Below the pieces are notes generated by a model. The model saw only the letters and a list, made by a program, of their open reading frames with translations. It was not told where the DNA came from and did not search any database. From assembly GCA_014729935.1 (NCBI GenBank), contig WJJB01000384.1, forward strand, positions 1 through 16,841: a DNA stretch of 16,841 nucleotides. Direction: 5' to 3'. The stretch comes from Candidatus Bathyarchaeota archaeon (lineage in GTDB: Archaea; Asgardarchaeota; Lokiarchaeia; Sigyniarchaeales; Sigyniarchaeaceae). The position numbers were made by a program, and so were the translations under genes. Positions within the stretch are counted from its first letter, which is position 1, and every line of letters begins with the position of its first letter. Shown one piece after another: positions 33-16,653 of this stretch.

Positions 33-455
33 ATGGCAGAAATCAAGGATAACTTGTTGTACACGAAAACTCATCAATGGTACGATCCAGAATCGGGAAA
101 GGTAGGCATCACGGATCACGCGCAGGATCAATTGGGCGAGATCGTTTATGTTGAATTGCTGTGGGATGATGGCTTGGCTGGTACTGAAGTTAGTGCAGTT
201 ACCTACGATGGAGACGAACCCGCCAGCGATCCAATCGATGATATCTCGGTTGAAAGTCAGAAAGCGGTAGGTGATATTTATGCACCACTATCTGGCGAGA
301 TCACGTCCGTGAACGAGGATCTCATGGATGAGCCAGAAAAAGTGAATGAAGACCCTTATGGCGAGGGTTGGTTATTTACATTGGATCCATCTGATTTTGA
401 CGGTGAGAAAGGAAACTTGCTTGATGCAGCTGCCTACAAGGCATTTTGCGAGTAA
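33..455 (+). CDS. gcvH: Glycine cleavage system H protein (lipoyl carrier), with an extra acidic insertion before the lipoyl-lysine
   Basis: ATG at 33. Characteristic GcvH motifs are present: YTKTHQW, GITDHAQ, lipoyl-lysine context VESQKAVGD, C-terminal NEDPYGEGWLF and AAAYKAF. At 140 aa it is about 15 aa longer than typical. Confidence 0.9.
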   Translation: MAEIKDNLLYTKTHQWYDPESGKVGITDHAQDQLGEIVYVELLWDDGLAGTEVSAVTYDGDEPASDPIDDISVESQKAVGDIYAPLSGEITSVNEDLMDEPEKVNEDPYGEGWLFTLDPSDFDGEKGNLLDAAAYKAFCE

Positions 456-1288: not shown

Positions 1289-1855
1289 TTACACCGGGAA
1301 GTATCCTTTCTCATGAAAGTAAAAGAAAAAGGCGTTGATCACGAGAGAATGCGTGATTATGCCATCATGAATATGCTTGAATGCCTGCCTTGGTGAAACG
1401 GTGCACGAGGATACGCGTTCGTTTGGCCCGTCGAATTCAGGTTCACCTAGTTTCTTGGCATTATCAATCAAGAACGTGTAACAGGAATGGCGGTGGATGG
1501 CTGGATTCGGGTTCACCTTCCCGATGAGCTTGGTTGATTCTCCCTTGTATCCCGTCTCCTCGTGAAGTTCCCTTTCAGCTGCAACCGAAGGTTCCTCACC
1601 TGATTCTATGATACCACCGGGTATTTCAAGCTCCACCTTGTTGGAACCAAAGCGGAACTGTCGAATGAGAACTACTTCCCCGGTTGTAGTTTCCGCTATG
1701 ATATTCACCCAATCATTGCTTCTGATGAGAAAAGTCTCGATCTCCCTTCCATCGTGTGGATTCTCAAAGATAACCTCATCAACCGAGAAAATTTTGAAAG
1801 ATCCCCTTTCCGTGGTGCCCTTTTTCTTCCAATCCCTGATCTCCATGCTATGCAT
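1289..1855 (-). CDS. Nudix hydrolase, ADP-ribose/NDP-sugar pyrophosphatase-like
   Basis: Canonical Nudix box GGIIESGEEPSVAAERELHEETGY (G-x5-E-x7-REUxEExGU). Start placed at the internal ATG (MHSMEIRDW), so it does not overlap the upstream mutase gene. It is the last gene of the minus-strand sugar-phosphate operon. Confidence 0.85.
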   Translation of the reverse strand: MHSMEIRDWKKKGTTERGSFKIFSVDEVIFENPHDGREIETFLIRSNDWVNIIAETTTGEVVLIRQFRFGSNKVELEIPGGIIESGEEPSVAAERELHEETGYKGESTKLIGKVNPNPAIHRHSCYTFLIDNAKKLGEPEFDGPNERVSSCTVSPRQAFKHIHDGIITHSLVINAFFFYFHEKGYFPV

Positions 1856-1860
1856 TCCCT

Positions 1861-3261
1861 TCAGATTGAATTCATGGCTTCCTTCACGAGCTTGATACCC
1901 CATTTCGCGAGGGCTATTGCACCTTTCATTGACTTGCTATCGGCAAAACTCCTGAATTTTGGTTCTGTTCCGGACGGTCGTATCAGGACGGAGCCCCCGT
2001 CCTTGAAAATCTTCACGCCATCTATAAGCGTTCGTCGTTCCTCGCTGGTAACTTTCTTGATGCGAGCCAAGATATCATCCTTTAAATAATTCTCCACCTT
2101 TATGGTTTCCTTGTGAAGGTGATACTTGGGAAGCTCTGCAAAAAGCTCGGACAATGGAACATTTCGCTTCACGAGAATCTTGATGATGAGTGCCAAGGCG
2201 ACGCCCCCATCACGGACGGGTTGGAATGGCGTGTAAAATATGCCGCCGTTCTCTTCCCCCGCTATCATGGCATCCAGTTCCTGCATGCGACGGGAAACGG
2301 TGATGCTACCCACCTTGGTCCATTCCAGTTTGGCACCCCTGGCGTTCACGATCTCATCCACGAGCATGGATGAGCTCACGGGGGTAACGACCCATCCCTT
2401 ATACGTTTCCAAGAGATGATTCAAGATAACTGCAAAACTCTCGTCTCCCCAATGGAACACTCCCTTGTCATCAATGAATATTGCCCTATCGCCATCTCCA
2501 TCGAACCCGATCCCGAACGATGCTCGTTCCTTGACGATTGCATCCTTCAACTGTTCCAACGATCTTGGCGTGGGTTCCGACACGCGATTGGGAAACGTGC
2601 CATCCGGTTCATCAAAGATCGATGTCACCCTCACGCCTATATCATCCAAGAGCTCCTTGAAGTAGGAACACGCGATTCCATTCCCTGGATCTACCACCAC
2701 GTGGATATCCCTGGCTCCATGGCCATCGATGGGAATGACTTCGCCGATACGTTTCCTGTAATACTTCACGATATCGGGATTGTGCTCGAGTAATCCCATA
2801 CCATTCCATTCGGGTAAACTGAACCCAGGTACCTCGTTATTGAAAATGCTCTCGATTTCACGTTCCTTGGAGGCGGGGAGCTCGATGCCGTCCCTATCTA
2901 TCACCTTGATCCCGTTGAATTCAGGGGGATTGTGGGACGCAGTGATCATGAGGCCCATGTCGAATCTTGCGGTATCCTTGATGTATTTTTGCAATGCAGG
3001 AGTCGGGGTGAAACCAGCATCTTCCACATTAACTCCAGATCCGAGGAGTCCCGCAACGAGGCCAGATTTCACCATGGCCCCGGAAACACGATAATCGGTA
3101 CCGACAAGTACCTTGCCACCTCCAAGGTAAGTTCCCATGGATTGGCCGATGCGCGTGCAAGTGGCTGGAGTGAGATCGACATTGGCGATCCCGCGTATTC
3201 CATTCGTGGTGAATTTCAATGATCTTGATTCTTGTGCTACCAAAACATGTTCACCTTTCAT
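1861..3261 (-). CDS. Phosphomannomutase/phosphoglucomutase (alpha-D-phosphohexomutase family; archaeal ManB/GlmM-like)
   Basis: Active-site serine loop TASHNPPEFNGIK, metal-binding loop GFDGDGDR, sugar-binding GEENGG, N-terminal TNGIRG. The track starts it at GTG 3288. The ATG at 3261 (MKGEHV...) lies 5 nt from the upstream gene's stop, which suggests translational coupling. Confidence 0.9.
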   Translation of the reverse strand: MKGEHVLVAQESRSLKFTTNGIRGIANVDLTPATCTRIGQSMGTYLGGGKVLVGTDYRVSGAMVKSGLVAGLLGSGVNVEDAGFTPTPALQKYIKDTARFDMGLMITASHNPPEFNGIKVIDRDGIELPASKEREIESIFNNEVPGFSLPEWNGMGLLEHNPDIVKYYRKRIGEVIPIDGHGARDIHVVVDPGNGIACSYFKELLDDIGVRVTSIFDEPDGTFPNRVSEPTPRSLEQLKDAIVKERASFGIGFDGDGDRAIFIDDKGVFHWGDESFAVILNHLLETYKGWVVTPVSSSMLVDEIVNARGAKLEWTKVGSITVSRRMQELDAMIAGEENGGIFYTPFQPVRDGGVALALIIKILVKRNVPLSELFAELPKYHLHKETIKVENYLKDDILARIKKVTSEERRTLIDGVKIFKDGGSVLIRPSGTEPKFRSFADSKSMKGAIALAKWGIKLVKEAMNSI

Positions 3262-4420
3262 CCTGTTGTTGTATGATGCGTTCGACACGTGCCTTGATTT
3301 CCTCCTGCACGTGTACCTTGTTTTTTAATTCTTCCTTGAGACCTTGAATGTAAGTTACTGGCGTGGGATCCTTTCCATTCAAAAATGCAAGGTAAATGCT
3401 CATGAAATCACCCATGTACACCAAGGAGAGCATGCGGGCGAGTCGAGAAGTCCCGCGTGCTACCAAATTAATGCATGCTGCTGCCTTTTCTTCCAGAATA
3501 CCCTTCGTGTATCTCACCCGAACACCCATGGAACCAGCCTCTTGCTTTTCATCCCGCAACAAGATGCAAGAGACGTGCATAGATACATCAGGAGCTACTT
3601 CCCATCCCACAGTCTCGTTATGATTTAGCTCTGGAAAAAAATCGTGATATGCAGGATTCTTCCCATTTTCGTTTATCTGGCCCTTCAAGCGCCGCGCAAC
3701 ACTGACCAGGCAACCATGGCCATATATTGCAATGATGGTCTTGAACACCTTCAATGCGGCTTGCTTCATGGGATTTTCGTTCACCGTGGATTCTCTACCG
3801 CATTCCGAGGCTAAAGTGTGAAGGATCGCTGATGTTTCTTCGAGCTCGGTAATGATCTTTTCCTCGGGCACGATACCCGTGCCAGCCATCAGGATGGCAA
3901 GGGCGGTGAATAAATACAGCAGGGCCGCACGGGGTTGATAGCCACTTGGCAGGTGAATGCATAATCCATTCACCCTTTCAAGGAAGGAGGCCAATAACCC
4001 CCCGGAGGTGATGCCAATGCAAGTAACTTCACGCTCGATCGCATCGGCGAAACAGCTTAATGTTTCCTCCGTGTTACCAGAATAGGATAGAAAAATACCC
4101 AAGTAATGGTTGGTAATGTAAACCGGTAATGAATAACCTCGAACGACAATAATGGGTATATCCATGGCATCTTGCAACCAATCGCGCAATAAATCTCCAG
4201 AAATTGCAGACCCACCCATGCCAACGACGAAAATACCCTTCAGTTTTCCTCTCGAGATATAATTTGATACCTTCTCGATGATTCGCGTTTTTTGAACACG
4301 GGCCATGGATTCAATGCACCAGTCCATGAATCCGGGAGATTTTTCCACGATACCAAGCATGTCTCCTGAATCGAGCTCCTTCAACCTCTTGCGATCATCA
4401 AGAATGCTGGTGAGCGTCAT
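3251..4420 (-). CDS. Bifunctional phosphoglucose/phosphomannose isomerase (SIS-domain, archaeal PGI/PMI family)
   Basis: SIS-domain signature GIFVVGMGGSAISGDLL and an SYSGNTEET-type loop. Length of about 390 aa and the overall pattern match the crenarchaeal/Thermoplasma-type bifunctional PGI/PMI. It sits immediately upstream of the phosphohexomutase. Confidence 0.75.
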   Translation of the reverse strand: MTLTSILDDRKRLKELDSGDMLGIVEKSPGFMDWCIESMARVQKTRIIEKVSNYISRGKLKGIFVVGMGGSAISGDLLRDWLQDAMDIPIIVVRGYSLPVYITNHYLGIFLSYSGNTEETLSCFADAIEREVTCIGITSGGLLASFLERVNGLCIHLPSGYQPRAALLYLFTALAILMAGTGIVPEEKIITELEETSAILHTLASECGRESTVNENPMKQAALKVFKTIIAIYGHGCLVSVARRLKGQINENGKNPAYHDFFPELNHNETVGWEVAPDVSMHVSCILLRDEKQEAGSMGVRVRYTKGILEEKAAACINLVARGTSRLARMLSLVYMGDFMSIYLAFLNGKDPTPVTYIQGLKEELKNKVHVQEEIKARVERIIQQQDER

Positions 4421-4468: not shown

Positions 4469-5011
4469 TTACATGTAATACACAGTGGAGCTCCTGTCAA
4501 ATCCCTTGACCAGTTCAATGGAGCGAGTATCTGGGGTGAATTGGTATTCAACTGGCGCATACCGGTGCCTCGGGAAGAAATACCCGATGCCATGCTTTGC
4601 CATCAACGTTACCGGGTGATCCTCAGGGAATACTTTCCTCGATACTTCCCGCGTGATTTTCCTGCAAGTCCCCTCATCAAGGAACCCGAGAGCGTGGATG
4701 TACTCGTGTTGCAATACATGGTAAACGTATGCTTCCACGATTTCCTCTCGATCCAATTGACGGGCATTTTTGTTCCATCGTGATGCGGTTTCCCCCGTCG
4801 CCAATAATACCTGTAATGCACGCCGGTTCATGAGAATCATGGTTCCTCCCGAGAAGAACATCCCCCCGATGAAACCTCGTGAAGAAATACCCATATCCAC
4901 CAATCCCAAGCTCAATCCTGCACGCTGCCTTCCAAGGACGTGCTTGACATCCCGCTTCACCTGTTCGAATATATCAGGCATTGCCTGTTTCAATTTTCTC
5001 AAGTCCATCAT
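4469..5011 (-). CDS. Small zinc metallopeptidase-like protein with an HExxHxxGxxD motif (metzincin-like minimal protease). Family uncertain.
   Basis: HEYIHALGFLDE motif, with a possible Met-turn (VTLMAKHG) downstream. The track starts it at TTG 5029. The ATG pair at 5011/5008 (MMDLRKL) is preferred, and a TATA-like AGTTATATAC sits about 25 nt upstream. Confidence 0.55.
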   Translation of the reverse strand: MMDLRKLKQAMPDIFEQVKRDVKHVLGRQRAGLSLGLVDMGISSRGFIGGMFFSGGTMILMNRRALQVLLATGETASRWNKNARQLDREEIVEAYVYHVLQHEYIHALGFLDEGTCRKITREVSRKVFPEDHPVTLMAKHGIGYFFPRHRYAPVEYQFTPDTRSIELVKGFDRSSTVYYM

Positions 5012-5153
5012 GATGTTCGACGGTTCCAAGTATATAACTTCCCCCGTTATGTGATATCGCCACGAAATATCCCGCGGGCATGATACAAGTGCAATCTTCT
5101 TTAACCAAGAATTTAATAACTAGCTATCAACAGGACTCGAAGGTGGAAGCAAC

Positions 5154-5744
5154 ATGGTGAATGATACTTCCGTGGTAGAGATAGACAAGGCGCTTGGCGA
5201 AATTGACAAGCTTGAAGATGAAATGGTTGGCGTGCGCGAATCGCTTAAAAAACTCGATCGCCTCACGGGGATCCTCTCCGATGTTCGACGGATCCTGCAC
5301 GGTAGCAAGGATGCGATTAATCAACTAGATTTCGAACGCCGCGTGCTCGAGGAGGAGAAGAAAAAGAAGGATGAGGAGATCTCACAGCTCACGGGTGAAC
5401 AGCGAAAGATATTGGAGGAATATGACCAGATTGAATCACAGCTGAAAAAATTCCAATCTTTAGTGAGCAAATTCGAGGAAAAGGAATTTAAGTTTGAAGA
5501 CGTGAAGGCCATGCTCAGCATCTTCACGATTTTGCTCGAGGAGATATTTCAAGGACAACCCCATGCCAGGATACTTTTTACATTGCACGGTGGTGCCAGT
5601 TCCATGACACGGGACCAGCTCAAGAATGCAACCGGTATCAGTGGCGCCATGGTATTGCGGGCGGTGCATGAGCTTGATCGGGCGGACCTCGTGAAATATG
5701 ATTCAGATACCAGCGAGGTGACGCTAGTCCGCCGAATCTATTAG
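5154..5744 (+). CDS. Coiled-coil protein with a C-terminal winged helix-turn-helix. Putative DNA-binding regulator or adaptor.
   Basis: The N-terminal two-thirds is a heptad-like, charged coiled coil (EEEKKKKDEE, LEEYDQIESQLKKF). The C-terminus (ILFTLHGGASSMTRDQLKNATGISGAMVLRAVHELDRADLVKY) resembles a MarR/ArsR-like wHTH. An SD (AGGTGGA) lies 9 nt upstream of the ATG. Confidence 0.7.
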   Translation: MVNDTSVVEIDKALGEIDKLEDEMVGVRESLKKLDRLTGILSDVRRILHGSKDAINQLDFERRVLEEEKKKKDEEISQLTGEQRKILEEYDQIESQLKKFQSLVSKFEEKEFKFEDVKAMLSIFTILLEEIFQGQPHARILFTLHGGASSMTRDQLKNATGISGAMVLRAVHELDRADLVKYDSDTSEVTLVRRIY

Positions 5745-6274: not shown

Positions 6275-6613
6275 ATGGCTAAAGACAAGACTATTGGAGC
6301 AATCATCTTGGTAGGTGCTGCCGCACTACTCGTCTTTTACACGTTCTGGTTGATCGGTGGATTCATCCAAGATAATATAGTTCCTGGGAATATCTGGGAT
6401 AAGCTAAGCTGGTTCCCCCACATACCCGGACTTCCGTGGGAGCTTGCAGTGATCATTCCGTTGTGGCTGGTGGCAGCACTCGTCCTCGCGATCGCTATCT
6501 GGATCGGTTGGAGCATGTTGACAACCCCACCACCTGTGCCACTGGAGGAGCTAGAAGAGCAGCTTGAGGCAGAGGAAGCCGAGGCAGCAGCAGCCGAGGG
6601 CGACTCAGAATAA
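6275..6613 (+). CDS. Membrane protein with two TM helices and an acidic Glu/Ala-rich C-terminal tail (112 aa)
   Basis: Hydrophobic segments GAIILVGAAALLVFYTFWLIGGF and LAVIIPLWLVAALVLAIAIWIGW. Tail PVPLEELEEQLEAEEAEAAAAEGDSE. SD GAGGT 8 nt upstream. Confidence 0.6.
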   Translation: MAKDKTIGAIILVGAAALLVFYTFWLIGGFIQDNIVPGNIWDKLSWFPHIPGLPWELAVIIPLWLVAALVLAIAIWIGWSMLTTPPPVPLEELEEQLEAEEAEAAAAEGDSE

Positions 6614-6709: not shown

Positions 6710-7870
6710 TCACTTTTTCACCTGAACTTTCTTGGCTACTTCTTCATCAATGTCCTCGATGGATATCTTGAGTGAATCGTCCAAGTCCATCCCGAGGCTA
6801 TCCAACTCTATCTTGGCGTCTTGGACCATGTCATCTGCCTCGATGTTACTACCGGTGTTCACGCCAAGATTGGCGATTTCTTCCATTTCCTTGTTGATAT
6901 TTTCTTCCATTCGGCGGATTTCAGCCATTTCCTCATCGAAAGTTTTCATGGGCGGAGGATTGTTACTTGCCGGGGTGCTCATCCCCGTTTCCTGGCTTTT
7001 TCCAGAAGTTGCTTGAGTTGCTTCCGTGGATTCACCCGTGTTGATTTCATCTTCTGTGAAGTCGGAGAGAAAATCGGACTCGTGGAACATGTAATCCTCG
7101 TCGTTCAACACGTCCATGTCATGACCCGTTATTGCTTCTTCCTCCGGCGGGGATTCTATCTCCGGGGAAATCCCCTTGGTGTTGCCAAGCGCCCCCGATC
7201 CAGGTACCGTTGGACCGCGCTTCTCGAGATTCGTGACGCGTACCATTTCCTCCTTGAATGCCTTGTACCTTGCAGGGATGATTTCGTCAATATTGCTATC
7301 GCCGTTTTCAGCAATTATTTCCCTGTATTCCTCCAGCTCATCACCGGTGTACACGTGTCCGTTCCCCATGTTGTAGAACAAGGGAATGATGCGGGCATCC
7401 GGGATCACCTTCTTGATGATCTCTAGTTCCCTTACCTGATCGAGCAAATGGGTAACCTCATTTGTGAAGAATCCGAACAAGTCCATGGCGCTCTTTAGGG
7501 AAGAGAAATACTTCGAGATTGTTCCCGATGATGCGAATATTTGTTTTAACTTGGAAAGATTGCGTCTCAGGGTGTCCACATCCGAAAGCATGCTGTTGGA
7601 ATGTCCCAGGATGACAATTTCCTTCACTTTCCCATGCAGGAGCAAGGCGTAGATCGACCTTATCACATCATTACTCACGGTGGGCCCTGCATTCCGAATC
7701 ACGCATGCTTCTCCTGGCTCCAACTTGAAGATATCGAACGGATTGATCCGTGGGTCTATCGACGTGATGATGACCACGACTTCCTCCCTTTTTTTATCTA
7801 CCACTCCCGTGTCCTGTCCCAGAGTCTCCTTCTGGTGAACCGAAACCATGTTGTTTAATATCAAGTCCAT
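6710..7870 (-). CDS. Beta-class carbonic-anhydrase-like domain protein. Both zinc-ligand cysteines are replaced, so it is probably a pseudoenzyme. It is fused to a long acidic, disordered/coiled-coil C-terminal region.
   Basis: The N-terminal roughly 200 aa align by eye to Cab-type beta-CA. IITSIDPR corresponds to the CxDxR loop, with Cys replaced by Ser/Thr. VIRNAGP is present. ILGHSNS corresponds to HxxC, with Cys replaced by Ser. The C-terminal roughly 170 aa are D/E-rich (e.g. DEDYMFHESDFLSDFTEDEINTGESTE, EEMAEIRRMEENINKEMEEI). Confidence 0.7.
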   Translation of the reverse strand: MDLILNNMVSVHQKETLGQDTGVVDKKREEVVVIITSIDPRINPFDIFKLEPGEACVIRNAGPTVSNDVIRSIYALLLHGKVKEIVILGHSNSMLSDVDTLRRNLSKLKQIFASSGTISKYFSSLKSAMDLFGFFTNEVTHLLDQVRELEIIKKVIPDARIIPLFYNMGNGHVYTGDELEEYREIIAENGDSNIDEIIPARYKAFKEEMVRVTNLEKRGPTVPGSGALGNTKGISPEIESPPEEEAITGHDMDVLNDEDYMFHESDFLSDFTEDEINTGESTEATQATSGKSQETGMSTPASNNPPPMKTFDEEMAEIRRMEENINKEMEEIANLGVNTGSNIEADDMVQDAKIELDSLGMDLDDSLKISIEDIDEEVAKKVQVKK

Positions 7871-8089: not shown

Positions 8090-9337
8090 ATGAACATGCA
8101 ATTCGGCGGGGGTTTCAACCTGACCATGTTTCTCGTGCTAGCGGGAGTCATCGTGGGTATCGCCGTGATCATATATATCATCGTGTGGTTCAACACCCTG
8201 GTTGTGGTGCCGTTTAATGAGGTGCACGTTGTATCGAAAACAAAGAAAGTAAACCAGTATGACGGATCTGGGAGGTATCGTTATTTCAAGGTATTGCACG
8301 GTCGAACCATCATTCCCAAACACGTGCTGGATATCGAGCCACCACTCATTAAACTGCATGATATTGACAAGCTCCCCTTCGGTGTGGAAATTTCTGTTAA
8401 AGTGCAGGTCACTGACCCGAGAAAAGCTGCCGAGACTTTGACAGCCATTAACCACCAAACCATCAGCAAAGTGGTGGAAGATACCGTCATGAGTGCTGCC
8501 AGGTCCGTTGCAATGGAGCGGAACATCCTGGATATCATGAAGGAGCGTGAGGAAATTGAATCCGCCATTTACGGGATGGTATCGGACGCGTTGAACAAGT
8601 TGGGGCTTTCTCCCATCATCTTCGACATCAAGAACATCCGGGACATCGATGGGATGGACGTGATTGCAAGCCTTGAGCGGGTGAAGATCGCGGAATTGAA
8701 GAAAAACGCTCGGGTATCCGAGGCGATTCATAATAGCGCGGCGATTACCATAGAGGTTGAGAAAAGGAAGGAAAACACGGTTAAAGACGAGCAAATGAAG
8801 CAGGAAGAGGAAAATGCGCGTCTTGAACGTGAAAAAAGCATTGCTGATCAGATGATTCAAGTGGAAAAGCGGAAGCTCGCAATTGCTCGCCAGAAGGCTC
8901 ATGAAATGGCTGAAATCGAACTGGAAAAGCAGCAAATGGCGGCACGCGCCCTGCGGGATAAGAAAATGATCTTGGCACAGGCAGAAGCAGATGCAATCAA
9001 GCTCAAGGCGGAAGCGGACGCGGAGGGCATCAAACTCAGGGGTGAGGCAGAAGCTGCTACCATCAAGCACAAGGCTGAAGCCATGAATGAGTATAACAAC
9101 GTGAGTGCGGCAGGTGCGAAGATCAAGATGGCTGAAATTCTCAGCGCCGCACAAGTTGAAATGGCGGAAAAGCTGGCTACCGCCCTTGGATCAAATAACA
9201 AGATCATGTATCTTCCCATGGATGGCAAGAGCAGTTTCATAGGAAATTTCCTGCCAAAATTGGACATGCTACTTCAATCCGATGTGGTGCAAAGAATGCT
9301 AAGCAAGCTGAGCGGGAAAGGGGACAGTCCCGAGTAA
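8090..9337 (+). CDS. Flotillin-like SPFH/band-7 protein (FloT/YqiK type)
   Basis: N-terminal TM helix, SPFH domain, then a long coiled coil with characteristic EA repeats (AEADAIKLKAEADAEGIKLRGEAEAATIKHKAEA). SD GAGG 8 nt upstream of the ATG. A TATA-like CTTTATATTC lies at about 7997-8006. Confidence 0.9.
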   Translation: MNMQFGGGFNLTMFLVLAGVIVGIAVIIYIIVWFNTLVVVPFNEVHVVSKTKKVNQYDGSGRYRYFKVLHGRTIIPKHVLDIEPPLIKLHDIDKLPFGVEISVKVQVTDPRKAAETLTAINHQTISKVVEDTVMSAARSVAMERNILDIMKEREEIESAIYGMVSDALNKLGLSPIIFDIKNIRDIDGMDVIASLERVKIAELKKNARVSEAIHNSAAITIEVEKRKENTVKDEQMKQEEENARLEREKSIADQMIQVEKRKLAIARQKAHEMAEIELEKQQMAARALRDKKMILAQAEADAIKLKAEADAEGIKLRGEAEAATIKHKAEAMNEYNNVSAAGAKIKMAEILSAAQVEMAEKLATALGSNNKIMYLPMDGKSSFIGNFLPKLDMLLQSDVVQRMLSKLSGKGDSPE

Positions 9338-9356: not shown

Positions 9357-9380
9357 ACCCCATCCTTGTGTGATCCAATA

Positions 9381-10028
9381 ATGGTGAAAGTTCCAACTGG
9401 GGCACGGGTAACCGTGGACTTGTGGAGTAAAAATAAGGGAAAGGGTATGGTGAAATATCATGCGGATACCATGTTTCTTGTCCGGGGTGAAAGTGATTTT
9501 CCCCTCGAGAAAGGGGTTCCCGCCATAGTGGTGGAATCCCACGAGAATTTTGTCAGGATCATCCCGCTTGATGACTACACCCGTATTCTTGGCAAGAACC
9601 TGACCGGCATCAATATTGAAGCATTATCCAAGGTAATCTACGAGTATCTTAAGAAACATATCGACCATACAGGGGGAATGGTGTCGGTTGATGACATGCT
9701 CGTGATGTTGAAGAAAACTTCCATCGCCATGGAAATCAAGCGAAAGCACCTGTTGAAAGCGGCGGGTGCAGGCAAGTACCAGGTCCAGCTCTACGAGCAT
9801 GGTGGCATCATGTTTCTCGCGCTATCGGAACAAGAATGCACCACGGACCAAGCAACCATCTTGGAGCTGGCGAAGGGTAGGGATTATCTTGGCATGGTGG
9901 AGATTCGAGCGGTTACGGGATGGAAAGATGCACGTATTGTCAGGGTGATGGACTTTCTCGTGGAGCGAAATGCCTGTCGCAAGTCCAGCACGTACAAGGA
10001 CGGCATGCGTTTTTACTTCACCCCGTGA
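9381..10028 (+). CDS. Small beta-barrel (KOW/SH3-like or NfeD-OB-like) N-terminal domain fused to two tandem winged-helix domains. Function unknown.
   Basis: The N-terminal region carries a KOW-like motif: GARVTVDLWSKNKGKGMV, then FLVRGES...GVPAIVVESHENFVRIIP. After that come two helix/helix/beta-hairpin repeats (ALSKVIYEYLKK...YQVQLY and QATILELAKG...IVRVMDFLVERNA...MRFYF). The track starts at TTG 9366. The ATG at 9381 is preferred. Confidence 0.65.
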   Translation: MVKVPTGARVTVDLWSKNKGKGMVKYHADTMFLVRGESDFPLEKGVPAIVVESHENFVRIIPLDDYTRILGKNLTGINIEALSKVIYEYLKKHIDHTGGMVSVDDMLVMLKKTSIAMEIKRKHLLKAAGAGKYQVQLYEHGGIMFLALSEQECTTDQATILELAKGRDYLGMVEIRAVTGWKDARIVRVMDFLVERNACRKSSTYKDGMRFYFTP

Positions 10029-10147: not shown

Positions 10148-11911
10148 ATGGGGAAATTCACGAAAAAGATGAAAATAGCATCCATCACAGTGGCCGTAGT
10201 GGCCCTAACAACATTTTCGTTCCTGCTTTTCTTGCAACCATGGAAATCCACGAGGAATGGTAATGATACGCCGCCATTGGTGGGAACCCCATCTACGGGA
10301 ATTCCAGTTGCTGGAAGCCCAATTCGCGTGAACGTGACCGTCACGGATGATATTGGGGTGCAACAAGTTCTCCTTGGATACACGACAGACCTGAACATGT
10401 GGCAGAATGTTACCATGTCCGGTGCCGGCACGGAGACATGGATTGGCTACGGGCACATACCCGCACAGGATATCGAAAAAGAGATCCATTACGTGATTCA
10501 CGGGATCGATTCCAGTGGGCATGTAACGACTAATGACAACTCGTCTTCGTACTACAAGTTACATACCGGTTCGCGCAAGGCGATGATATTATGCTCCGCG
10601 AATGATTTTCACGGGGAGGAGCCTGAAGGAGCATTCAATGGCAGTCCTGATGGAACTTTCGATTCATGGACGGGAAACTGGGAGGTGGAAAATGGCGGGT
10701 CATCCTTCGTGATGGCACCTGGGCCACCTGAAGTCTCCTTCGAAAAGGCCGTGCCTGGCCCCGACCAGAATGCCATTTCATTCAACTGGACGGGGAATGG
10801 CTATGATTTAGTTGAATATGCCGAATATCAAATTTCCGTGATGGCAAGAATCGATACCGTAGTCGATGGACCTGGTGCGAGGGTTGGTATTCGGTGGTTG
10901 AACGAATCGGGATCCACAATCAGGATGGATTGGTCTGGAAATCTCAACGACACGGTTGGGACATGGGAGTCCCTGCAGGCAACTGGCCCGTGTAATAATG
11001 AATCAAGTGGAATAATTACGGGAATGGAAGTGCTCCTTGATGTTCAAGGAAATAATGCTGTTACCGTGTTTTTTGATAATGTGACCGTGAACAAGCTCAT
11101 CACGGTGAACGTGAGCAACCCTTTAGATCCTGGGAATTCCCCCCCGCCACCATATATTGATTCAGATGGATTCCCCGCGCAAGCATTGCACGTGTACTGG
11201 ATCTTGAAGAATCATGGCTACAGTGATGATAATATCTTCTTGATGCTCTATCACACCAATGATCCCGTGATTGATATACAAGCAGGTGATGGGATTCCCA
11301 ATGATCTCGTTGGCGCGAATATTGACGTCGAGAATGATGACGTGAACGCCAGCAGATTCATCGAGGAACTAAACGTGTCGCACGCCGGATCTTTTGCATC
11401 ATCCATCAAGGAAAATGATCAGCTCATCGTGTATCTCGTGGATCACGGTTCGAATGCCATCCTTGGGGATGGAAATGTCACGTTCCATTTCGAGGCAGAC
11501 GGGAGTTACGTGAGCGAGATGGAATTTCATGATTTGGTGAATAATATCTCTTGCAACCGCATGATGATAAACGTGGATTGCTGCTTCAGCGGCAATTTCT
11601 TGCAAGTGAATGCCAGTGCAGGCGGTTGGCTTGATATCGACAATTGCATCATGGTCACCTCGTCATTGAACGTGTTCTCGTGGTACTGGGTAGATAATTC
11701 GAACGGGGACATGTTCGCTGGCTCCTGGTTCTTCCACGTGTTCTGGGAGATTCTTGACATTGGACTATCGATAGCAGATGCATTCACTCAATCGGAAAAC
11801 TTCGTGCCTTTCGGGAAGCCAATGCCCTTATTCGTGTCACAATGTCCATTATATCACGATCCCGGTAACATTGGATCGACCTGGAATTTCACCAGCGTGC
11901 CAAGATTATAA
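10148..11911 (+). CDS. Secreted or membrane-anchored cysteine peptidase of the C13 family (legumain/GPI8-like) with a large N-terminal domain. Heavily decorated with N-glycosylation sequons.
   Basis: N-terminal signal/anchor segment (KIASITVAVVALTTFSFLLFL). Catalytic-His context LIVYLVDHGSNAILG and catalytic-Cys context NVDCCFSGNF match the legumain His-Gly-spacer-Cys arrangement. I count 17 N-x-S/T sequons. Strong SD GAGGAGGAG upstream. Confidence 0.75.
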   Translation: MGKFTKKMKIASITVAVVALTTFSFLLFLQPWKSTRNGNDTPPLVGTPSTGIPVAGSPIRVNVTVTDDIGVQQVLLGYTTDLNMWQNVTMSGAGTETWIGYGHIPAQDIEKEIHYVIHGIDSSGHVTTNDNSSSYYKLHTGSRKAMILCSANDFHGEEPEGAFNGSPDGTFDSWTGNWEVENGGSSFVMAPGPPEVSFEKAVPGPDQNAISFNWTGNGYDLVEYAEYQISVMARIDTVVDGPGARVGIRWLNESGSTIRMDWSGNLNDTVGTWESLQATGPCNNESSGIITGMEVLLDVQGNNAVTVFFDNVTVNKLITVNVSNPLDPGNSPPPPYIDSDGFPAQALHVYWILKNHGYSDDNIFLMLYHTNDPVIDIQAGDGIPNDLVGANIDVENDDVNASRFIEELNVSHAGSFASSIKENDQLIVYLVDHGSNAILGDGNVTFHFEADGSYVSEMEFHDLVNNISCNRMMINVDCCFSGNFLQVNASAGGWLDIDNCIMVTSSLNVFSWYWVDNSNGDMFAGSWFFHVFWEILDIGLSIADAFTQSENFVPFGKPMPLFVSQCPLYHDPGNIGSTWNFTSVPRL

Positions 11912-11947: not shown

Positions 11948-12982
11948 TCATGATGCACGTGCATGGTTCACGCCCATGACAGTTGACTTTCTTGCAGAGG
12001 TGTAAATTGACTCGATCAGCTCGAGAGCCCTGGTGCCATCTGTTCCGGTGATGGCTGGTGCACGCCCTTCCTTAATGGCATTCGAGAAGTCCTGTAGCAG
12101 GCGCCCGTGGGAAAGGATCTTCAACTCCTTTGAAGAAATTCCACGTTCACCTGCGAAATCCCTTCTATCGATATTTCCATCACCCTTGAAAAAAATCAAG
12201 GAATCCTTGCGAATTTCAATGGCACCCCTAGTTCCATGGATGGTTAGGCTTGTTCCCATGGGCGTCTTCACCGAAATGGAAGCTTGGATGGTCCCGAACG
12301 CGCCGTTCGTGAACTTGAATGCAGCCACGGCATTATCCTCGGTTTCGATATCATGCATGAGATGCGATTGGAATCCAGCCACCAAATCCACATCTCCGAT
12401 GAGATGTAATGCCAAGTCGATGTCGTGAATGGCTTGGTTGATGAGCGCACTGCCCCCTTCCATGTTGAGCCTTCCACGCCACTTGCTTTCAGTGAAATAT
12501 CCCCCATCCCGTTTCAAGTAGACCTCTATCTTGGCAAGCAGTAACTTTCCCAGCTTTCCCGAGTCTATCATCTGTTTCGCCAAGAGGGTTGAATCATTGA
12601 ACCGGTTTTGGTGATATACTCCAAGAACGAGATTTCGCCTGCTTGCCTCTTGGATCATCTCCCGTGCATCATTCGTGCTCGTGGCAATGGGTTTTTCAAC
12701 CAGCACGTGCTTGCCGTGTTCGAGTGCATCCAGGGCCACGGGGTGATGCAACCTGTGGGGCAAGGAGATGATGATACCCTCCACGTCCTTCATCACGCAA
12801 AGATCGAGATGGGAATCCACCGTGGTAGGAATGCTGAATTCCCTCGCGAGATTTCTTGCTTTTACGATATCATGGTTTGATATTGCAATGATATCGAGAT
12901 TAGCAGCTTTTTCCACTCCACGTGCAATGTTCCTTGCAGACCATCCCGCGCCAGCAATGGCGAGCCGTGCTCTTGAATCCAA
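11948..12982 (-). CDS. Gfo/Idh/MocA family NAD(P)-dependent oxidoreductase (paralogue 1)
   Basis: N-terminal Rossmann IAGAGWSARN, the family EKP motif (HVLVEKPIA), and a C-terminal alpha/beta domain. TTG start supported by an SD (AGGTGA) 7 nt upstream. The only in-frame ATG further upstream is cut off from this ORF by a TGA stop. Confidence 0.85.
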   Translation of the reverse strand: MDSRARLAIAGAGWSARNIARGVEKAANLDIIAISNHDIVKARNLAREFSIPTTVDSHLDLCVMKDVEGIIISLPHRLHHPVALDALEHGKHVLVEKPIATSTNDAREMIQEASRRNLVLGVYHQNRFNDSTLLAKQMIDSGKLGKLLLAKIEVYLKRDGGYFTESKWRGRLNMEGGSALINQAIHDIDLALHLIGDVDLVAGFQSHLMHDIETEDNAVAAFKFTNGAFGTIQASISVKTPMGTSLTIHGTRGAIEIRKDSLIFFKGDGNIDRRDFAGERGISSKELKILSHGRLLQDFSNAIKEGRAPAITGTDGTRALELIESIYTSARKSTVMGVNHARAS

Positions 12983-13029: not shown

Positions 13030-14076
13030 CTAAAGGGTGATGATCTTTTCACCATTTGATTCATACACGGCTCGAACGACCTTCAAGGATTCCAATGCCG
13101 CCTCACCATTCACGACCGGTTCCCTATCCTCGATAATGGCATTGCAGAAATCCATCATCATCCTGCCGTGTGCTAATAGCGAGAATTTACTCGGATCTTT
13201 TGCAGAACCGACTTGACCACCGTGCTTCGCGGCATAATCAATCACTTTTTCCTTTCCATCAGCATCGTGTATGGTAAGTATATTTCCATCTATTTGAATG
13301 GCACCCTCGGAACCAAAGATCGTGAGTTTTGCGGGAAATGCTGCTTTGGTCGCCGTGCTCGTTTGTAGGGTGCCAAAGGCCCCGTTTTCGAATTGGAATG
13401 CCGCCGCGGTGAGGTCGTCCACCTCGATGTCATGTATGGCATGATCCCACAAGCCGAAGAGTGTCTTCACGCTACCAACTAAGTGCACCATTTCATCCAC
13501 GGGATGGATGGCTTGGTTTATCAGGCTACCACCGCCTTCCAATACCCATGTGCCACGCCACCCGCTTTTCTGGTAATAATCGTCGTCCCGGTACCACATG
13601 ACGCTCACGTTGGCTTGAAGAATTTTGCCCAATTTGCCCCCATCTATCAGCTTCTTTGCTTCTTGGACGGCATCGAAGAACCTGCATTGGAAATGCACGC
13701 CGAGCTTTAAATTCTTCTTCCTTGCGGTATCTATCATTTCCTCGGCGTCTTCTATTTTCGTGGCAATTGGCTTTTCAACAAGCACGTGCTTTCCATGTTT
13801 CAAGGCATACATGGTTATTTCGTGGTGCAATCCGTGGGGCACGCTGATGATGACGAAATCCACCGATTCATCATCGCACACGTCCTTGTAATCATCACTC
13901 ACGATTTTCGAGTCATGACCTGCAGCTATCTTCTTGGCGGCATCGATATTCTTATCCGCGATTGCCACCAAGCTTAAATTTTCGATGGTCGCAATGGTTG
14001 CGGCGATGTTCGTCGCGGAGCTTCCCGCGCCAATCATGCCCGCTTTCAAGTTCCTTGCTAACTTTCGTGATTCCAT
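13030..14076 (-). CDS. Gfo/Idh/MocA family NAD(P)-dependent oxidoreductase (paralogue 2)
   Basis: GMIGAGSSATNIA Rossmann motif, HVLVEKPIA, and the same architecture as the downstream paralogue. ATG start with a strong SD (GAGGTGA) 7 nt upstream. Confidence 0.85.
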   Translation of the reverse strand: MESRKLARNLKAGMIGAGSSATNIAATIATIENLSLVAIADKNIDAAKKIAAGHDSKIVSDDYKDVCDDESVDFVIISVPHGLHHEITMYALKHGKHVLVEKPIATKIEDAEEMIDTARKKNLKLGVHFQCRFFDAVQEAKKLIDGGKLGKILQANVSVMWYRDDDYYQKSGWRGTWVLEGGGSLINQAIHPVDEMVHLVGSVKTLFGLWDHAIHDIEVDDLTAAAFQFENGAFGTLQTSTATKAAFPAKLTIFGSEGAIQIDGNILTIHDADGKEKVIDYAAKHGGQVGSAKDPSKFSLLAHGRMMMDFCNAIIEDREPVVNGEAALESLKVVRAVYESNGEKIITL

Positions 14077-14113
14077 GAATCGTTCACCTCACGACATTGA
14101 TCGCACCCTTGCC

Positions 14114-14124
14114 AATAAAATTTT
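14114..14124 (+). promoter_or_regulatory. TATA-like AATAAAATTTT about 30 nt upstream of the EF-2-like gene ATG. No SD, so probably leaderless.
   Basis: AT-rich element at the canonical distance. Lies in the divergent region shared with the Gfo paralogue 2 promoter. Confidence 0.35.
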
Positions 14125-14148
14125 CAAACATGGTGTCCTTACATTCCC

Positions 14149-16362
14149 ATGCCAGCGAGGAAACGGCACATCGATCGGGTACTGGAGCTCATGTACCGAC
14201 CTGAATCCATCAGGAACTGCTCGCTTATTGGACATGTTGACCACGGTAAGACCACGCTATCCGATTCATTGCTTGCCAGCTCGGGATTGCTTAATCCAAA
14301 TCTTGCTGGCGAGGCTCACTTGCTTGATTTCATGGACGAGGAGCAGGAACGGGGCATCACCATGAAATCGGCAAATATCTCGCTTGTCTTTGCCCAGGAT
14401 GGTAATGATTACCTGGTCAACCTGGTAGATACACCTGGACACGTTGATTTCAGTGGCAAGGTTACCAGGGCACTGCGATTGATCGATGCAGCCATCGTGG
14501 TGGTGGATGCAGTGGAGGGCGTGATGATCCAAACGGAGCACGTGCTCCGTCAAGCTCTCGAAAGTGCCGTCCGCCCATTATTATTCATCAACAAGATCGA
14601 CAGGCTAATCGGTGAGCTGGGCTTGGAAGCACGAGAGATACAGGAACGTTTCAAGAACATCATAGGTGATTTCAACAGGTTGCTGGACGTGCACGCTCCC
14701 CCTGCATTCAAGTCCAAGTGGCGAGTGGGATTGGATGACGGCACGGTCGCGTTCGGGTCTGCCTTGGATGGGTGGGGCGCCACCCTTTCACAATTCTTGG
14801 ATCGATGTGATAGCTTCCAATTCATCATCGATCGATACTTGTTGGAACGTGAAGGGGAAGTTAATAAGGATACTTCGCAACTAAAGGAGCTCCTACCTGT
14901 TGATCGGGCCATCGTCAAGATGCTTGTTGAAAAAGCCCCTGATCCCGTCACCGCGCAAGAATACCGGATCCCGGTTATATGGGAAGGTGATGTTGCTTCA
15001 GATCTCGGTCAAGCCATGAGGCGGGCTAGCAAGACTGGACCCGCCATGATCTTTACCAGCAAGGTCATGGTGGAACATAACCAGCGGATTGTCGCAGGGA
15101 GGTTATTTTCGGGCACATTGCATTCCAAGGATGAACTCTTGTTGCTCAAGAATGGAGGACGGGAGCGGGTACACTCCATTGGTATTTTTATGGGCCACCG
15201 GATCTTGGCAGTGGAGGATATTCCAGCTGGAAATGTTGTTGCCATACAAGGATTGAAAGGGGTCAAGAGCGGGGAAACCTTGTTGCACTCTAATTATGAG
15301 GGCGATGCCAAGGGATCCCTTTCCTTTGGCCAGATCTCCTACATGATGGAACCCGTGATTACGGTATCGGTGGAACCTGAACGCTTGGTGAACCTGCAAG
15401 CCCTGCAGGAACACATTGAATTGAAACTCATTGAAGATCCAAACCTTCGGGTTGAAATAAGTGAGGAAACGGGGGAAATACTCCTATCAGGCATAGGTCC
15501 GCTCCACTTGGAAGTGGTGACCAGCGATATCGCCAAGCTTGGCATCCCGGTAATCATGTCAGAACCCATCACTTTATTCCACGAGAGCGTGGAGCGATCG
15601 GCGGGACCTATGGTGGGGGAAAGCATCAATGGGTTGAACAAGGTCACGATGCGCGTAGCACCTGTCTCGAAGGCGGAAGCGCGCGCCATAGAGCCAGTGA
15701 AGGAAATACCATCTCACGCGATCTCGGAACACACAAGGAGGCAGCTTGAGTCATTCCCGGAATGCTTCAAAGAAGAGGAGGTTAGCGCCATCGTTGGCAT
15801 TCTTGATGACCACGTCATCATCGAGATGCCCAACCTAAACGATTCCAGCAAAGCACCCATCTCCCGAGAGGAGATCCAGCTCGTTAACGGTGCCATCGAA
15901 ACCATCGTGAAGCGAGGACCACTCGTCCAAGAATCCATCAGGGATCTGAAGATCATCATTGAAGAAATTACCTTGGCTTCAAAAGCTGAAGATCGAAGCA
16001 TTGCCGAGTTGATCCCCATGATTCGGAAGGCTCTATTCGAGCTAATGCGACAGGCAGGTATTATCCTGCTCGAACCCATGTTCGAGAGTACCGTGTTCGG
16101 TTCCGTCGGGAACATTGGCACCATTACCTCGCTTATATCTCAGCATGGGGGAAAGGTAGTTTCCATGACCCAAGAGGGTAGTACCATAAAAATCCGTGCC
16201 ATTTTTTCCGTGCGAAGGAGTTTCAAGCTCATCGAGGCTGCCAGGTCGGCAACATCTGGCAGGGCTGTCTTCCAGAACGTGTTCCACGGATTTGAAAAGG
16301 TCACGGGAGGAGAAAGAAATGCTATTTACGAGCACTTGAAGGAACGAAAGGGACTTATATGA
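14149..16362 (+). CDS. Elongation factor 2 family GTPase. Divergent paralogue (aEF-2p-like) lacking the diphthamide histidine.
   Basis: Intact G-domain motifs (GHVDHGKTT, RGITM, DTPGHVDF, NKID) and full EF-2 domain architecture over 737 aa. In domain IV the canonical ...HRG... diphthamide loop reads EDRSIAELIPMIR, with His replaced by Asp at 15991-15993. The second tip loop (canonical SPNxHNR) reads SINGLNK. Confidence 0.9.
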   Translation: MPARKRHIDRVLELMYRPESIRNCSLIGHVDHGKTTLSDSLLASSGLLNPNLAGEAHLLDFMDEEQERGITMKSANISLVFAQDGNDYLVNLVDTPGHVDFSGKVTRALRLIDAAIVVVDAVEGVMIQTEHVLRQALESAVRPLLFINKIDRLIGELGLEAREIQERFKNIIGDFNRLLDVHAPPAFKSKWRVGLDDGTVAFGSALDGWGATLSQFLDRCDSFQFIIDRYLLEREGEVNKDTSQLKELLPVDRAIVKMLVEKAPDPVTAQEYRIPVIWEGDVASDLGQAMRRASKTGPAMIFTSKVMVEHNQRIVAGRLFSGTLHSKDELLLLKNGGRERVHSIGIFMGHRILAVEDIPAGNVVAIQGLKGVKSGETLLHSNYEGDAKGSLSFGQISYMMEPVITVSVEPERLVNLQALQEHIELKLIEDPNLRVEISEETGEILLSGIGPLHLEVVTSDIAKLGIPVIMSEPITLFHESVERSAGPMVGESINGLNKVTMRVAPVSKAEARAIEPVKEIPSHAISEHTRRQLESFPECFKEEEVSAIVGILDDHVIIEMPNLNDSSKAPISREEIQLVNGAIETIVKRGPLVQESIRDLKIIIEEITLASKAEDRSIAELIPMIRKALFELMRQAGIILLEPMFESTVFGSVGNIGTITSLISQHGGKVVSMTQEGSTIKIRAIFSVRRSFKLIEAARSATSGRAVFQNVFHGFEKVTGGERNAIYEHLKERKGLI

Positions 16363-16449
16363 TGAAATTTGGGGGATTTTCTTCGACTGGTGCCTCTCCA
16401 CCTTCTTTCTTTTTTCCATCATTCCCCATTCGATTTAAATCCATCGACA

Positions 16450-16460
16450 GATTATATGTT
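16450..16460 (+). promoter_or_regulatory. TATA-like box GATTATATGTT 27-37 nt upstream of the tRNA 5' end
   Basis: Seen directly. Sits at the appropriate distance for an archaeal tRNA promoter. Confidence 0.4.
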
Positions 16461-16486
16461 AACGCAAGGAAAGCCAATACTAATTT

Positions 16487-16597
16487 GCGCCTATTGTCTA
16501 GTGGTTAGGATACCAGCTTCCCAAGGTGTAGCGGTATATATCCCTTTTGGGACACCGGAAATAGCTGGTCGCCCGGGTTCAATTCCCGGTAGGCGCA
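16487..16597 (+). tRNA. tRNA-Gly(CCC): tRNA-Gly(CCC) with a 39-nt intron at the canonical 37/38 position
   Basis: Hand-folded cloverleaf. Acceptor GCGCCUA/UAGGCGC (7 bp, discriminator A). D-arm GUCU/AGUGGUUA/GGAU. Anticodon stem CCAGC/GCUGG with loop UU-CCC-A. T-arm CCGGG-UUCAAUU-CCCGG. The exons total 72 nt, and no CCA is encoded. Confidence 0.8.
16524..16562 (+). other. tRNA intron (archaeal splicing-endonuclease type)
   Basis: A 39-nt insertion between anticodon-loop positions 37 and 38. It has internal pairing GGUGU/ACACC and a CCC-UUUU-GGG hairpin, consistent with an archaeal bulge-helix-bulge substrate. Confidence 0.65.
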
Positions 16598-16653
16598 TTC
16601 TTCATTTTCACCTTCCTTGCTATTCCTATGCCAAAGAGTGATTCTGTTCACGT

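Follow-up and report, generated by a model that had tools for sequence, protein, structure and literature searches.

The stretch of DNA analysed here (the window) comprises 16,841 nucleotides (nt) of contig WJJB01000384.1, from assembly GCA_014729935.1 labelled Candidatus Bathyarchaeota archaeon, and carries on its plus strand, at 14149..16362, a gene for a five-domain GTPase of the elongation factor 2 (EF-2) family. The open reading frame (ORF) is uninterrupted, starts with ATG and encodes 737 amino acids (aa) followed by a stop codon; neither a frameshift nor an internal stop appears in the ORF list or the translation. This gene very probably encodes aEF-2p, the second, divergent copy of archaeal EF-2 (aEF-2) found in Asgard archaea devoid of diphthamide biosynthesis, and not the translocase. 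The protein has already been deposited as MBD3187972.1, under the name 'GTP-binding protein [Candidatus Bathyarchaeota archaeon]'.

All domains of EF-2 and EF-G are recognized by Pfam in the ORF: GTP_EFTU (E 9e-52), GTP_EFTU_D2/EF-G_D2, EFG_III, EFG_IV and EFG_C. The top NCBIfam model is TIGR00490, which describes aEF-2 and matches over the full length with 592.3 bits, below its equivalog cutoff of 738.45. The best sequence matches in the PDB are archaeal EF-2 proteins that align end to end, from P. horikoshii (5h7j, E 2.5e-147), M. smithii (6q2d), a Sulfolobus-type organism (8hl1) and M. nitroreducens (6u43/6u45). An AlphaFold2 model of the window protein, built on 67 relatives, has a mean predicted local distance difference test (pLDDT) score of 85.6 and a predicted template modelling (pTM) score of 0.78, and Foldseek superposes it over its full length on the archaeal EF-2 structures 6u43, 5h7j and 6u45 (about 735 aligned columns, E ~1e-77).

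The original prediction, made from the DNA letters alone, held that the G domain is canonical, and all five GTPase motifs are indeed in place. Their invariance was judged in an alignment of 67 aEF-2p sequences spanning the two clades, A and B, that are described below. G1, the P-loop GHVDHGKTT (residues 28-36, 14230..14256, plus strand as for all features within the gene), keeps H29, D31, H32, G33, K34, T35 and T36 invariant. The same holds for every residue of G2, the switch I motif RGIT (residues 68-71, 14350..14361), and of G3, the switch II motif DTPGH (residues 94-98, 14428..14442), which includes the catalytic His98 and was also compared across the canonical and paralogue sets. In G4, NKID (residues 148-151, 14590..14601), the invariant residues are N148, K149 and D151, and G5, GSA (residues 203-205, 14755..14763), is invariant throughout.

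The picture is different at the tip of domain IV. Tip loop 1, the diphthamide loop, lies at 15976..15999 and reads A-S-K-A-E-D-R-S, as opposed to the canonical H-x-D-x-x-H-R-G. HMMER places the segment 'kaeDRSiae' of the window protein under 'dnvHRGpaq' of 5h7j and 'daVHRGpaq' of 6q2d, the aligned His being residue 600 in the chain numbering of 5h7j, which we take to be the diphthamide site of P. horikoshii EF-2. At nt 15991-15999, the His is thus replaced by D615 (codon 15991-15993), the Arg is kept as R616 and the Gly is replaced by S617; the HxD that precedes them in HxDxxHRG is lost as well (A610, K612). Tip loop 2 (residues 492-498, 15622..15642) reads SINGLNK, as opposed to SPNKHN[KR] in canonical archaeal and eukaryotic EF-2, and the same alignment sets 'geSINgLNk' under 'gkSPNrHNr' or 'gkSPNkHNr' of archaeal EF-2. 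Of the canonical loop, the S-x-N-x-x-N skeleton is retained; missing are the Pro, the Lys that contacts the tRNA and the His that stacks. Acidic residues (E614, D615, E620) replace the residues lost from the tip. Both replacements had been announced in the original prediction, D-R-S at the HRG position and SINGLNK at the SPNxHNR loop, and both proved exact to the nucleotide by HMMER alignment and, for the former, codon arithmetic; the register, read by eye, was correct, D615 standing where a His would be expected.

The diphthamide His is also absent from all 120 of the best relatives listed. The closest of these, clade A (P0002-P0019), are 53-60% identical to the window protein, measure about 737 aa and form about 19 clusters at 90% identity; they come from metagenome-assembled genomes (MAGs) labelled Promethearchaeota, Sigynarchaeota, Hodarchaeota and Lokiarchaeota. 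Clade B is a much larger set of proteins, mostly of 729 aa and 40-43% identical to the window protein, from MAGs labelled Loki-, Thor- and Hermod-; clade A is only ~41% identical to this 729-aa Loki/Thor type. Altogether, the His-less paralogue family is kept across many Asgard lineages in hundreds of sequences. The protein is conserved, hundreds of homologues share its loss, and chance does not account for the pattern. A comparison of the window protein with the contigs of species-representative genomes returned only two distant EF-2 genes, from Hadarchaeota and Parvarchaeota MAGs, with 37-39% identity.

Column statistics set the two groups apart. The H, D, H, R and G of HxDxxHRG are 100% conserved in the canonical archaeal set, and in both canonical reference sets the diphthamide position is always a His (100%); among the 50%-identity representatives, every canonical archaeal or eukaryotic EF-2 carries SPNKHN[KR] and HxDxxHRG. 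Both paralogue clades have E or D at the diphthamide His position, and in clade A the Gly position is occupied by D or S, with the Arg of H-R-G kept by most members. At tip loop 2, clade A conserves the skeleton (S 1.00, N 1.00, N 0.95) and replaces the Lys and the His, the latter being fixed in the canonical sets (H 1.00).

A neighbour-joining tree of 78 sequences (717 columns, 100 bootstraps) recovers clade A, clade B and the two together as monophyletic groups, each with 100% support. Canonical Asgard aEF-2 and eukaryotic EF-2 form separate clades, also at 100%, and the window protein is sister to P0002 at 88%. It therefore lies outside the canonical EF-2 clades, inside a His-less Asgard clade, which upholds, together with the 120 relatives devoid of the His, the earlier proposal of an EF-2 paralogue rather than the translocase. 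Further EF-2-family proteins without the diphthamide His, of ~710-730 aa and metagenomic origin (P0082/P0120, P0122, P0124, P0130, P0133 and P0127), were also encountered, and the whole His-less set, made of these and of the Asgard paralogues, groups loosely with 76% bootstrap support. The spread and diversity of His-less EF-2 paralogues may thus exceed those of the two published clades.

The statement, in the original prediction, that such paralogues occur in archaea lacking diphthamide matches aEF-2p, a second EF-2 described from Asgard archaea without dph genes and from some Korarchaeota (Narrowe et al., 2018, Genome Biol Evol 10:2380, PMC6143161). In published aEF-2p, G1-G5 are conserved, HxDxxHRG and SPxKHN are unconserved and H701 (D. 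melanogaster numbering) is absent; the protein was judged unlikely to be a translocase, co-occurs with a canonical aEF-2 and is found in genomes without dph2, dph5 and dph6 (PMC6143161). Our assignment follows from the five-domain fold, the preserved G1-G5, the missing diphthamide His, the two unconserved loops and the position in the tree, all of which belong to the published definition. The window protein is accordingly an additional member of a described family, and the interpretation is not new. The same aEF-2/aEF-2p pattern was restated by Eme et al. (2023).

How constraint is distributed along the protein bears on whether the gene still has a function. The G, III and V domains are the ribosome-contacting parts of EF-2. 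In clade A, mean column conservation amounts to 0.83 in the G domain, 0.73 in domain II, 0.81 in domain III and 0.77 in domain V, and drops to 0.55 in domain IV, the least conserved domain, and to 0.53 in the diphthamide loop; in the canonical reference sets, no other part of domain IV is as conserved as the tip loops (0.74-0.88). A relaxed domain IV next to well-preserved G, III and V domains fits a ribosome-binding GTPase other than the translocase. The paralogues also evolve faster, with a mean identity of 0.62 within clade A versus 0.81 within canonical Asgard aEF-2. Together with the loss of the functional tip loops, this rate is what a decaying duplicate would display, one under relaxed selection or on its way to becoming a pseudogene. 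Such a decay is nonetheless extremely improbable, considering that the ORF is full length and intact, that the family has been retained across so many Asgard lineages, that the AlphaFold2 model is confident, and that G1-G5 and about 100 other positions are invariant in the 67 paralogues of both clades. Moreover, all sequences of clades A and B have Glu at position 620, where all those of both canonical sets have Gln; because this Gln-to-Glu change is fixed and specific to the paralogues, it argues against simple decay and for a new constraint.

If the window gene encodes aEF-2p, a canonical aEF-2 is expected elsewhere in the genome. Canonical Asgard aEF-2, first met as P0161 (with an 'RHTS' loop) among the 50%-identity representatives, forms a family of 750-aa proteins that are 72-90% identical across MAGs labelled Loki, Thor, Odin, Heimdall, Hermod and 'Hod'. 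The published companion of aEF-2p has R702 replaced by T, E660 replaced by R or K, and H-T-x in place of H-R-G (Narrowe et al., 2018, PMC6143161). Our alignment reproduces these features, with an H-T-Q/S loop, R702 to T (T 1.00) and E660 to R (R 0.82). Canonical Asgard aEF-2 and the paralogues carry the same taxon labels, a co-occurrence at the level of lineages and by labels only. At three loci (L011, L012 and L013), the gene for the canonical 750-aa protein lies downstream of those for aIF5B and the CCA-adding tRNA nucleotidyltransferase, not in a ribosomal-protein operon, and at L013 it is followed by two genes for small GTPases of the Arf/Ras family.

An alternative is that the window protein is the sole EF-2 of its organism, translocating without diphthamide and without canonical tip loops. 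No second EF-2 has been located for this genome, of which the analysis covered the 16.8-kb contig, and some dph-lacking archaea do use a single EF-2, namely Geoarchaea, K. cryptofilum and Kor 2/4 (Narrowe et al., 2018, PMC6143161). These single-copy lineages, however, strictly keep HxDxxHRG and SPxKHN (PMC6143161), both of which are lost here. The window protein furthermore sits, at 100% support, inside a paralogue clade that contains no canonical EF-2, the lineages of its closest relatives also have the 750-aa canonical protein, and domain IV is under the weakest constraint of the whole protein, the reverse of the situation in translocases. We thus regard a sole EF-2 as highly improbable.

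Several points nevertheless weigh against identification as an aEF-2p that leaves translocation to a companion. As regards canonical EF-2 and dph status, the sequence considered for this organism is the 16.8-kb contig only, and no match labelled 'Bathyarchaeota' was present among the 120 matches listed for canonical P0161. The 'Hodarchaeota' canonical copies P0303 and P0292 come from GCA_048887165.1, GCA_048886165.1 and GCA_048886345.1, and the clade-A paralogue P0005 from a different assembly, GCA_048886965.1. The S-x-N-x-x-N skeleton and the Arg of H-R-G, partly kept in clade A, may allow some interaction with the decoding centre. The tree is distance-based rather than a maximum likelihood tree with mixture models, and the deep placement of the aEF-2p clades was left unresolved by Narrowe et al. 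(2018, PMC6143161). Finally, the ribosome binding and GTPase activity of aEF-2p, and every role proposed for it below, are things that we infer. Among the window ORFs with a Pfam match, no Dph protein was found, which, in a window of 16.8 kb, says nothing of the whole genome.

With these reservations, aEF-2p would dock at the factor-binding site of the ribosome and hydrolyse GTP there, and would be unable to escort or stabilize the codon-anticodon duplex through the decoding centre during translocation. Lacking this stabilization, it would therefore not act as the translocase and would have an auxiliary role, translocation being carried out by the canonical aEF-2 encoded elsewhere in the genome. 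Its likeliest role would be an auxiliary ribosome-dependent GTPase activity that, in other archaea, the single aEF-2 performs itself. In eukaryotes, one activity of this type, the release of eIF6, is assigned to the EF-2 paralogue EFL1. By an EFL1-like division of labour, aEF-2p could remove aIF6 from 50S subunits in a GTP-dependent manner; it could also catalyse back-translocation, or rescue or regulate stalled or idle ribosomes. These roles are speculative and, taken singly, each of them is rather doubtful. In Sulfolobus, aEF-2 is the ribosome-dependent GTPase that frees the anti-association factor aIF6 from 50S subunits (PMC8024482), and the subfunctionalization of such a secondary activity of aEF-2 is, to us, the most attractive, if speculative, idea. 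Back-translocation or translational regulation was proposed for aEF-2p by Narrowe et al. (2018), with Tet-like proteins as a precedent (PMC6143161). The literature found on aEF-2p consists of that description of 2018 and later citations of it, and no paper was found that assigns it a function.

The surroundings of the gene offer another possible clue to its role. As stated in the original prediction, the gene is flanked by sugar oxidoreductases and a tRNA; the argument drawn from this, that such a context sets it apart from a translation factor, is weak given that canonical Asgard aEF-2 is also found outside the ribosomal-protein operon. Divergent from the aEF-2p gene lies that of a 348-aa NAD(P) sugar oxidoreductase of the Gfo/Idh/MocA family (13030..14076, minus strand, by Pfam), followed by a tandem paralogue (11948-12982, minus strand, also by Pfam). 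With NCBIfam, the former comes closest to archaeal UDP-GlcNAc 3-dehydrogenase and inositol 2-dehydrogenase, at scores too far below both cutoffs to assign a substrate. At the five clade-A loci compared (L003-L007, from four organisms), a divergent Gfo/Idh/MocA gene precedes that of aEF-2p in 5/5 cases; its product is 65-75% identical to the window copy, and the gap between the two genes, window included, is 70-110 base pairs (bp). The second oxidoreductase copy is present at L007 as well.

This arrangement raises the possibility of a non-ribosomal, metabolic-regulatory role of aEF-2p, coupled to the oxidoreductase by co-regulation from a shared bidirectional promoter region. In its favour, the divergent neighbour is present at 6/6 clade-A loci and is more conserved across them than aEF-2p itself (55-60%). 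Conversely, it is absent from the two clade-B loci examined, both of Loki-type genomes and one of them on a 4.36-Mb Lokiarchaeota contig, so that the pairing is lineage-specific. Unrelated genes are syntenic with aEF-2p too (52-76% identity), as expected from inherited gene order: a 196-aa ORF (5154-5744, plus strand) and an ORF for a 112-aa DPM2-like membrane protein (6275-6613, plus strand) at L003-L006, in four organisms, and a 186-aa ORF (4469-5029, minus strand) at one related locus. None of the three has a confident family, and their conservation in related Asgard loci indicates that they are real genes. Besides, the protein is best conserved in the domains through which EF-2 binds the ribosome, and the intergenic sequence is poorly conserved. 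For the lack of the neighbour in clade B and the synteny of several unrelated genes, a functional link between aEF-2p and the oxidoreductase was judged unlikely, and the metabolic-regulatory role that would build on it is very unlikely. The pairing would rather reflect gene order inherited within one Asgard lineage than a functional module. The conserved divergent oxidoreductase neighbour across the subclade is a minor new point, which provides context and not a shown partner.

The divergent intergenic region itself measures 72 bp (14077..14148) and contains an A/T-rich box, AATAAAATTTT, at 14114-14124, about 30 nt upstream of the aEF-2p ATG. As an inference only, we take this box as a candidate TATA element of archaeal type, with which the transcript would have a short leader or none. 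An A/T-rich box stands at a similar position in three of the four orthologous intergenic regions (ATTTTCAAA, AATTTTAAAT and ATTTAAAAAT, at L004, L006 and L007; not at L003). A conserved promoter was considered for this region and rejected, this box being only loosely shared and the rest poorly conserved. Downstream of the aEF-2p gene lies a gene for tRNA-Gly(CCC) with a 39-nt intron at the canonical 37/38 position (16486..16598, plus strand; Rfam RF00005, 50.8 bits), missed by ARAGORN at default settings and found with introns allowed (-i). The intron indicates an archaeal origin. A listed ORF that overlaps this tRNA (16369-16641, plus strand) is probably spurious.

A bolder reading can be derived from the particulars of clade A, whose members measure ~737 aa, have an acidic tip of the form [DE][DE][RK][DS] and retain an S-x-N-x-K-N loop. 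Instead of being simply orthologous to the aEF-2p of Loki/Thor type, clade A would have a function of its own and make up a third kind of EF-2-family protein in archaea; the acidic tip of its domain IV would touch a protein ligand bound to the ribosome (e.g. aIF6 or an SBDS-like factor) rather than RNA, the strictly conserved oxidoreductase pairing would reflect real co-regulation and, in the extreme version, the organism would have no other EF-2. We consider this reading unlikely.

At its start, the window carries a gene for the glycine-cleavage H protein (33-455, plus strand). A sugar-phosphate cluster follows on the minus strand (1289-4420), with genes for a NUDIX hydrolase (1289-1903), a phosphoglucomutase/phosphomannomutase (1861-3288) and a bifunctional phosphoglucose/phosphomannose isomerase (3251-4420, which passes TIGR02128); adjacent ORFs of this cluster overlap by ~40 nt. 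A 386-aa beta-carbonic anhydrase-like protein (6710-7870, minus strand) matches Pro_CA over its N-terminal 170 residues, and its C-terminal half, without a family match, is an unusual extension. An SPFH/Band-7 gene (8090-9337) directly precedes a 220-aa ORF of the EAP30/Vps36 family (ESCRT-II-like; GF325_14115, 9366-10028, plus strand), a weak match with 27.5 bits against a cutoff of 26.8, after which comes a gene (10148-11911) whose 587-aa product contains a peptidase C13 domain of legumain-like type. EAP30/Vps36 is a eukaryotic-signature-type protein typical of Asgard archaea. A word-indexed homology search with the EAP30-like ORF returned only the ORF itself.

A five-gene neighbourhood of the window is shared with MAGs labelled Promethearchaeota and Ca. 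Sigynarchaeum springense, with up to 75% protein identity. Because of this, of aEF-2p itself and of the EAP30/Vps36-family ORF, the 'Candidatus Bathyarchaeota' label is probably wrong, or the contig mis-binned, and the sequence points to an Asgard origin. In the phylogeny of Narrowe et al. (2018, PMC6143161), bathyarchaeal paralogues fall among the EF-2 proteins of TACK archaea and apart from Asgard aEF-2p. This mismatch between label and Asgard affinities is a second minor new point.

Among the archaea nearest to eukaryotes, few core translation factors have been duplicated across whole lineages, and aEF-2p is one such case. The duplication is associated with the loss of diphthamide, which was formerly believed to be universal in archaea and eukaryotes. 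The window adds one member to the family and helps define a subclade with its own tip-loop signature and neighbourhood, which may guide the choice of proteins for biochemistry. The existing picture is unchanged; the finding is ordinary for an Asgard genome, and specialists of archaeal translation or Asgard genomics would recognize it at once.

Comparison with known systems places the window protein more precisely. It resembles canonical archaeal EF-2 (5h7j, 6q2d, 6u45 and 8hl1) in architecture, fold and GTPase motifs, with 34-37% identity over the full length, and differs from it by a score below the TIGR00490 cutoff, by its separate clade and by the loss of the diphthamide His, the HxD, the Gly and the Pro, Lys and His of loop 2. 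EFL1/Ria1, involved in 60S maturation and eIF6 release, and Snu114, a component of the spliceosome, are EF-2 duplicates that kept the GTPase and the five domains and gave up translocation. They offer a conceptual precedent for neofunctionalization, and are weaker matches to the window protein in both structure and sequence: EFL1 (5anb) scores 214 bits and Snu114 ~206 bits, versus ~495 bits for archaeal EF-2. An orthologue of EFL1/Ria1 or Snu114 was ruled out, as the window protein is far closer to archaeal EF-2 and has 737 aa instead of the >850 aa expected with the insertions of these proteins. In the published phylogeny, eEF-2, Ria1 and Snu114 form a clade with the aEF-2 of Heimdall-LC3, not with aEF-2p (Narrowe et al., 2018, PMC6143161). 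Their likeness to aEF-2p is therefore one of analogy, not of orthology.

Tet(M)/Tet(O), EF4/LepA and BipA, bacterial EF-G paralogues devoid of the translocase loops, are distantly related, ribosome-dependent GTPases of the same superfamily with altered or replaced domain IV tips that do not translocate. Their NCBIfam models score only 140-210 bits against the window protein, mostly over the G domain, and their domain IV and C-terminal architecture is different. The Tet analogy was drawn by Narrowe et al. (PMC6143161), and our analysis lends no support to an antibiotic-related or back-translocation role of the window protein. The closest system remains the aEF-2p of Narrowe et al., with which the window protein shares the five-domain fold, G1-G5, the lack of the diphthamide His, the unconserved loops, fast evolution and a place in the Asgard His-less cluster. 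Compared with the large Loki/Thor group of aEF-2p, its subclade is smaller, most members keep the Arg of H-R-G next to an acidic residue at the His position, and the gene lies in a conserved neighbourhood of its own.

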